9,649 bases of DNA from a virus. The position numbers and the translations under genes are program-made. Shown piece by piece: positions 9,603 to 9,630 of the stretch; within the stretch, counting starts at the first letter, position 1; the number at the start of each line of letters is the position of its first letter. Location of the stretch: the UHGV virus genome UHGV-1443331; one strand, given 5' to 3'. The notes under the pieces were generated by a model. That model was given only the letters and a program-made list of their open reading frames with translations. It was not told the origin of the DNA and did not search any database.

Positions 9603-9630
9603 ACATAACGAGTCGTACATTATGCGCACC
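9603..9630 (-). other. Hybrid dif-like site (right attachment site): intact XerC arm, central region matching dif only on the XerC side, degenerate XerD arm
   Basis: Reverse complement is GGTGCGCATAA TGTACG ACTCGTTATGT versus dif GGTGCGCATAA TGTATA TTATGTTAAAT: XerC arm identical, central region 4 of 6, XerD arm not conserved. Confidence 0.75.

Follow-up and report, generated by a model that had tools for sequence, protein, structure and literature searches.

The dif-like site at the edge of an Escherichia coli filamentous prophage, read as an attachment site recreated between tandem CUS-1/YpfΦ-type copies

The DNA analysed here, a stretch of 9,649 nt from the virus genome UHGV-1443331 that we call the window, matches the chromosomes of Escherichia coli 85.0412 and MS 200-1 at 100% identity. 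It carries one 8,287-bp unit of a CUS-1/YpfΦ-type inovirus, which runs on the minus strand from one XerC cleavage position to the next (1333-9619). The RefSeq annotation of the identical genome assigns to the minus strand of this unit the genes for a pIV secretin (2111-3376), Zot/pI (3384-4478), a DUF5455 protein (4479-4820), the attachment protein (4820-6070), the major coat protein (6117-6359), G5P (6563-6880) and pII (6892-7944); the G5P assignment is accompanied by a Pfam match, and that of pII by a match to the Pfam family G2P. Small ORFs and a cargo ORF of 230 aa lie on the plus strand at 8114-9533. A recombinase gene was found neither in the RefSeq annotation of the element nor by Pfam, the gene content consisting of inovirus genes and small ORFs only.

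The plus-strand segment 8114-9533, which reaches from the pII promoter region to the attachment site attP2 described below, is a variable cargo slot when compared with the loci L011-L014. The 230-aa ORF had no Pfam match, and in other E. coli variants the same slot holds DUF6953, STM4504-family or other ORFs. At the GC stem-loop that follows (9564-9597) no intrinsic terminator for the 230-aa ORF was called, the 12-nt loop exceeding the limit of the scan.

Gene order (pII, G5P, coat, attachment protein, Zot, secretin) is the same as in CUS-1 of E. coli O18:K1:H7 and YpfΦ (CUS-2) of Yersinia pestis, and these phages, like the one in the window, have two small ORFs beside the regenerated dif. The pII protein is 85% identical to that of the Y. 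pestis NCTC5923 prophage, the published identity within the group being 99% over 7.1 kb (PMC4266046), so that gene order, pII identity and attachment region all agree with the CUS-1/YpfΦ group. Beside attP2, the phage in the window and YpfΦ carry different cargo (here the 230-aa ORF with small ORFs), a difference that is likewise reported between CUS-1 and YpfΦ. In the phage collection no close relative was found; the best matches, to IKe and the Erwinia PEar phages, covered 115-190 nt of the secretin gene at about 80-88% identity. In extraintestinal E. coli K1 and in Y. pestis, a link between CUS-1-type phages and bacterial fitness has been reported (PMC4266046).

At the left end of the unit, positions 1316-1343 (minus strand; GGTGCGCATAA TGTATA TTATGTTAAAT) match the 28-bp E. 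coli dif, as tabulated in PMC2731167, at 28/28 positions with 0 mismatches, and 0/200 shuffled sequences gave a match. An earlier reading of the window, made from the sequence only, had called this site a perfect dif, and we agree. Its XerD arm and central region run into host DNA on the LysR side, and its XerC arm runs into phage DNA. When the left flank and the dif are joined to the hipA flank from the far side of the insertion, they give a sequence of 267 nt that is 100% identical to the empty locus of E. coli 536, so the insertion was precise and took place at dif. The comparison with an uninterrupted dif locus that the sequence-only reading had proposed supports it in outline, as does the perfect dif regenerated on the XerD/LysR side, which leaves the host a dif as had been predicted. 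The host genes at this dif (window positions 72-416, minus, and 457-1128, plus) are pseudogenes in the RefSeq annotation, fragments of an SDR oxidoreductase and of a LysR-family regulator.

The minus strand of the right site (9603-9630) reads GGTGCGCATAA TGTACG ACTCGTTATGT. Its XerC arm is identical to that of dif (11/11), and it shares the first four bases of the central region (TGTA) before diverging, just as had been described. The 15-nt core GGTGCGCATAATGTA occurs exactly twice in the window, in the left dif and in the right site; with as many as three mismatches allowed, only 0.26 matches would be expected by chance, and the resemblance is therefore no chance match. With a 6-bp spacer, the XerD arm of the right site (ACTCGTTATGT) agrees with that of dif at only 5/11 positions, and the arm had been called unrecognisable. 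This description has to be withdrawn: 5 nt further out, positions 9598-9608 (minus) read TTATGTTGAAA, which matches the XerD arm at 9/11 positions and is kept in relatives, and the spacer is consequently 11 nt long. We rejected the 6-bp register in favour of the 11-nt spacer because the length of this spacer and the sequence of the arm are kept across genera, and because the site so defined pairs with attP2. The complete site, attP1, occupies 9598-9630 (minus) and consists of the XerC arm GGTGCGCATAA (11/11), the 11-nt spacer TGTACGACTCG and the XerD arm TTATGTTGAAA (9/11), a layout that was present in every related phage examined. The spacer TGTACGACTCG has its first 4 nt in common with the TGTATA of dif, which limits the identity with dif to the XerC side, and variants with spacers that begin TGTGCG, TGTAAC or TGTCAA retain only the TGT(A) of the dif central region.

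The sequence that follows attP1 bears directly on its identity. Positions 9631-9649 (plus strand; AATGGTAAGGATGGTGGGA) are identical to 1344-1362, the 19 nt that follow the left dif, and these are phage DNA rather than host DNA; the next prophage copy begins with them, and the window stops 19 nt inside this second unit. With phage DNA on both flanks, the right site is a phage attP recreated between two copies and not the host-phage hybrid that it had been taken for. An extended attP homology shared with the host flank was considered as the source of the 19-nt identity and rejected, because the host flank on the hipA side differs and single-copy lysogens (for example, FDAARGOS_1256) match the window only as far as 9632; the host flank there is AACATAAACCAAGG.

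The second copy can be seen in full in the genome NZ_CP122448, which is 100% identical to the window and holds two 8,287-bp copies, with 0 differences between them, between the LysR pseudogene and hipA. The RefSeq annotation of 85.0412 shows two complete head-to-tail inovirus gene sets between these two genes. Since a second identical copy follows in NZ_CP122448, the site in the window is the point where one copy meets the next; 35 complete E. coli genomes contain this copy-copy junction. The true host-phage hybrid adjoins hipA, 8.3 kb further on, after the second copy (29885-29917 of locus L001), where the same 33-nt site as in the window is followed by the host sequence AACATAAACCAAGG; the host flank AACATAAACC is seen only beyond the second copy. 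On these sequence comparisons, the right site is a reconstituted attP at the copy-copy junction of CUS-1/YpfΦ-type tandem prophages. [quoted passage not shown]

A second XerCD-like site, attP2, lies at 9537-9563 (plus strand) and comprises GGTTCGCACAA (9/11), the 5-nt spacer TGACG and TTATGCTAAAG (9/11). It is inverted relative to attP1 and 34 nt away from it, and the two sites, with the GC-rich stem between them, make up a long imperfect inverted repeat. The minus strand of 9534-9633, which is the sense strand of the structural genes, is predicted to fold into a forked hairpin analogous to the attP(+) of CTXφ, in which an XerC-arm duplex is followed by a 7x1 internal loop (the central region), an XerD-arm duplex, an 11-bp GC stem and a 12-nt loop, the GC-rich stem and loop corresponding to 9564-9597. 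The predicted folding energy is -31.2 kcal/mol (z -7.75), and 0/200 shuffled sequences fold as well; the plus strand also folds well (-29.1 kcal/mol). From the orientation of the genes, together with general knowledge of inoviruses, we infer that the packaged strand is the minus strand. The earlier description of the right site, sound in its XerC half, took in neither attP2 (9537-9563, plus) nor the hairpin that attP2 can form with attP1.

The hairpin recurs in related phages. When one genome per species was searched with the pII protein, relatives came to light in Y. pestis (where two copies lie 8,742 bp apart), Brenneria alni, Klebsiella spallanzanii, Phytobacter and some metagenome-assembled genomes (MAGs). 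In YpfΦ of Y. pestis, attP1 and attP2 are both identical to those of the window, and the attP1/attP2 hairpin differs by one loop base and nothing else; compared by way of this prophage and of the published descriptions of CUS-1, the site itself shows no difference of substance from that of the CUS-1/YpfΦ group. Brenneria alni has an attP1 of the form GGTTCGCATAA-11 nt-TTATGTAGAAA and an attP2 of the form GGTTCGCATAA-5 nt-TTATGCAAAAG, and at the Klebsiella locus and one MAG locus the sequences differ but the architecture of the hairpin is the same; this architecture was seen in five lineages. Among E. coli variants (spacers TGTACGACTCG, TGTGCGACTCG, TGTAACACGCG and TGTCAACGCG), the bulged spacer and the loop are the only parts that vary, and TGT is retained. 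An alignment of eight sequences has 99% of its cells paired, as against 29-46% in slid registers, and contains three compensatory pairs, all contributed by one divergent relative, Brenneria. We consider the support that this alignment lends to the hairpin modest but consistent, and its covariation part thin.

A circular Salmonella enterica record of 7,938 bp (L015, NZ_CP140410) represents the free genome of a near-identical phage. Both attP1 and attP2, and with them the hairpin, are conserved in this episome, and attP1 is bordered by the same phage flank, CCATCCTTACCATT being followed directly by GGTGCGCATAA TGTACGACTCG. The record was deposited as a plasmid, and beside its attP2 a gene for a toxin of the Doc (death-on-curing) family replaces the 230-aa ORF.

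The junctions in E. coli are uninformative about the position of the crossover, because the XerC arms of host and phage are identical. Natural markers are available in two other hosts. In Y. pestis, the host-phage junction carries GGTGCACATAA beside the host flank, and the phage's own arm, GGTGCGCATAA, stands beside the phage flank at both the copy-copy junction and the regenerated dif; we infer, from the host flank only, that GGTGCACATAA is the original host arm. An IncFIB/IncHI1B plasmid of Klebsiella pneumoniae (L016, NZ_CP132684) carries a related inovirus in at least two tandem copies, with sites at about 581-613, 10085-10117 and 19589-19621 (minus strand). The plasmid Xer site at which it is integrated has the central region TGTACG, which matches the phage spacer for six bases. 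At the host-phage junction the plasmid XerC arm AGTGCGCTTAA is kept, and the regenerated site reads GGTGCGCATAA TGTACG TTATGTTAAAT.

In Y. pestis and the Klebsiella plasmid, the exchange is bounded by position 6-7 of the XerC arm on one side and by position 5 of the central region on the other, a location that fits cleavage at the XerC position. Read in this way, the markers show that the left 'perfect dif' is itself half phage-derived. That the left site might prove to be the phage-derived one had been named beforehand as an observation that would count against the sequence-only reading. It turns out to be half true, and in the manner that the model set out below requires: the XerC arm is contiguous with phage DNA, but the central region and the XerD arm belong to the host.

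Reviews assign CUS-1Φ and YpfΦ to the CTXφ class of phages, which use (+)ssDNA as the substrate, depend on XerC only, integrate irreversibly and produce phage by rolling-circle replication (PMC4246890), and the attP sites of the CUS-1 and Ypf phages have been said to show the features required for direct integration of ssDNA (PMC3089051). For CUS-1/YpfΦ the reviews give this single-stranded, XerC-only and irreversible route as their inference, the experimental demonstration being that for CTXφ only. In CTXφ, XerC exchanges one pair of strands, replication completes the integration, and phage is made from tandem copies by rolling circle; the prophage is not excisable because the central regions of its duplex sites are unsuitable (PMC4246890). 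The El Tor CTXφ has an attP1 of the form AGTGCGTATTA-12 nt-TTATGTTGAGG and an inverted attP2 of the form AATGCGTATTA-7 nt-TTATGTTACGG, which fold together into attP(+) (PMC3089051).

The likeness of the phage in the window to CTXφ of Vibrio cholerae is extensive. Both have two inverted XerCD-like sites with unequal spacers (here 11 nt and 5 nt) that form a hairpin, a spacer that opens with TGT as dif does, a regenerated dif, attP1 and attP2 left together at the other end, and tandem prophages. The features of the class found here comprise integration at dif, the lack of a recombinase gene, inverted attP1 and attP2, a predicted hairpin, identity with dif on the XerC side and a regenerated dif. 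The hairpin in the window is shorter, at about 100 nt with 34 nt between the sites, compared with about 150 nt and about 90 nt in CTXφ. The two phages also differ in lineage, host and cargo, and the mechanism, which is established by experiment in CTXφ, is here proposed from the sequence.

We consider it highly probable that the window holds the dif-proximal copy of a CUS-1/YpfΦ-type tandem pair at dif, that 9598-9630 is attP1 recreated, and, by analogy with CTXφ, that the phage integrates by a CTXφ-type mechanism. In such a mechanism, attP1 and attP2 would fold in the packaged (+) single strand into the forked hairpin, which would offer XerC-arm and XerD-arm duplexes around a mismatched central bubble, and the XerCD recombinases of the host would pair this hairpin with dif. 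XerC would then exchange a single strand pair where the XerC arm meets the central region, a step stabilized by the TGT(A) that the phage site has in common with dif, and XerD is proposed to be unable to complete the reaction because the rest of the central region is mismatched. [quoted passage not shown] The products observed at the locus are, on the hipA side, in both L001 and L002, a non-functional hybrid of host XerC arm, phage spacer and XerD arm, with attP2 adjoining, and, on the LysR side, a perfect dif made up of the phage XerC arm and the central region and XerD arm of the host. Single-stranded integration, catalysis by XerC only and irreversibility are carried over by analogy from CTXφ to the phage in the window, and the junction sequences alone would look identical had the substrate been the duplex replicative form.

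This model modifies the sequence-only reading more than it replaces it. The phage had been described as an integrative mobile element exploiting Xer (IMEX) with XerC-first integration, which holds in outline, there being no recombinase, insertion at dif and identity on the XerC side; the reason given for it and the labelling of the sites do not hold. Inefficient Xer-mediated excision had been predicted, and by analogy with CTXφ it is still to be expected in outline. The XerD arm, whose degeneracy had been blamed for blocking exchange by XerD, is present after all, and the block would instead come from the CTXφ-type design: the inverted attP1 and attP2 would be a functional XerCD substrate only as a folded single strand. 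With duplex spacers of 11 bp and 5 bp in the prophage, excision by Xer is not expected.

A second integration into the regenerated dif would produce a tandem array and with it a copy-copy junction. If the array was built by successive integrations of this kind, the copy in the window would be the later one. Rolling-circle replication that starts at the origin of one copy and ends at that of the next would pass through the junction and yield genomes with an intact attP; a complete genome would come from a run that begins at the hipA-proximal origin, traverses the junction in the window and ends at the dif-proximal one. If the analogy with CTXφ holds, this junction would be the only place in the chromosome with a contiguous phage attP region.

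Homologous recombination could generate the same array, and a copy-copy junction formed by recombination or by replicative amplification, in place of a second Xer integration, would mean that the site in the window marks no event of its own. The two copies are 100% identical, as this origin would have it, and the review of YpfΦ discusses homologous recombination as a possible source of copy-number changes and of insertion between copies (PMC4266046). Against it stands the fact that a second XerC integration into the regenerated dif predicts the junction exactly as observed and is the accepted route for CTXφ arrays. We regard an origin by recombination as a plausible but rather unlikely alternative; the sequence itself favours neither route.

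It is also conceivable, but improbable in our judgement, that the duplex copy-copy junction is itself an active recombination target, for instance through extrusion of the 100-bp inverted repeat as a cruciform. Such a cruciform would be a hairpin resembling attP(+) on the chromosome, and could allow the occasional Xer-dependent loss of a copy. Superinfecting YpfΦ inserts between resident copies and not at the regenerated dif, an observation that is still unexplained (PMC4266046), and an active junction would account for it. If superinfection does target the junction, the site there would be more than a passive scar.

The single prophage assumed by the sequence-only reading, in which the site in the window would be a host-phage hybrid derived from a duplex attP with a degenerate XerD arm, and integration XerC-first in the manner of VGJφ, has become very improbable. 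It draws on real likenesses: identity with dif is confined to the XerC side, phages of the VGJφ type are likewise XerC-first (PMC4246890), and the true hybrid on the hipA side has a 33-nt sequence identical to the site in the window, which it has because the XerC arms of the phage and of E. coli are the same. However, the DNA that follows the site in the window is that of the phage and not of the host, which already refutes the label of hybrid, and a good XerD arm lies behind the 11-nt spacer. Phages of the VGJφ type share with the phage in the window a filamentous nature, integration at dif, XerC-first exchange and identity on the XerC side of the central region, but their attP is one duplex site of 29 bp whose arms enclose a 7-bp central region, a layout that we did not find here, and they integrate reversibly and are excised by XerC (PMC3089051, PMC4246890). 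The phage in the window has instead two inverted sites, conserved across genera, whose 11-nt and 5-nt spacers are unsuited to duplex recombination, and the reviews place CUS-1 and YpfΦ in the CTXφ class and not with VGJφ. That the tandem duplication is an artefact of assembly, the last 19 nt of the window having been mis-joined, is scarcely credible, since exact 8.3-kb repeats are indeed hard to assemble but the junction appears in 35 independent complete genomes, recurs in Y. pestis (with a period of 8,742 bp) and in the Klebsiella plasmid, and tandem copies of YpfΦ have been documented experimentally (PMC4266046).

The CTXφ-type arrangement proposed for the window is ordinary and like that of the cholera phage. 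Because reviews already place CUS-1 and YpfΦ in the CTXφ class, the sequence-only reading amounts to the rediscovery, with some mislabelling, of what was already known, and its importance beyond correct annotation is small. When a dif-like half-site turns up at the edge of a filamentous prophage, its flanks and its inverted partner need to be taken into account; here, the flanks show a tandem array and the partner points to a single-strand attachment site of the CTXφ type. Both alter the predicted behaviour of the element, from which no excision by Xer but production of phage from tandem copies would be expected, and the number of prophage copies in a strain, one or several, is relevant to its ability to release phage. 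In the single-copy lysogen FDAARGOS_1256, the pII replication gene is annotated as frameshifted (9892-10943 of locus L002); such decay would be expected of a lone copy unable to excise or replicate.

Traces of these phages also turn up in unexpected records. Two contigs filed under MAGs of unrelated taxa, L003 (JARKOR010000214, Candidatus Nanosynbacter) and L008 (Aerococcus), contain this enterobacterial phage and an E. coli-type dif, and were probably mis-binned. A fossil of about 72 nt (about 92% identity), made up of attP2, the GC stem-loop and the first part of the attP1 XerD arm, is present in the plasmid pJIE186-2 (NC_020271; 2500-2571 of locus L017) and in about 400 further conjugative F-type plasmids. 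By its sequence, it looks like a fixed remnant of the end of a CUS-1-type phage. It sits directly after a gene of the STM4504/CBY_0614 family, the family that also provides the attP2-adjacent cargo in the phage variant of E. coli O20:H12 (L014).
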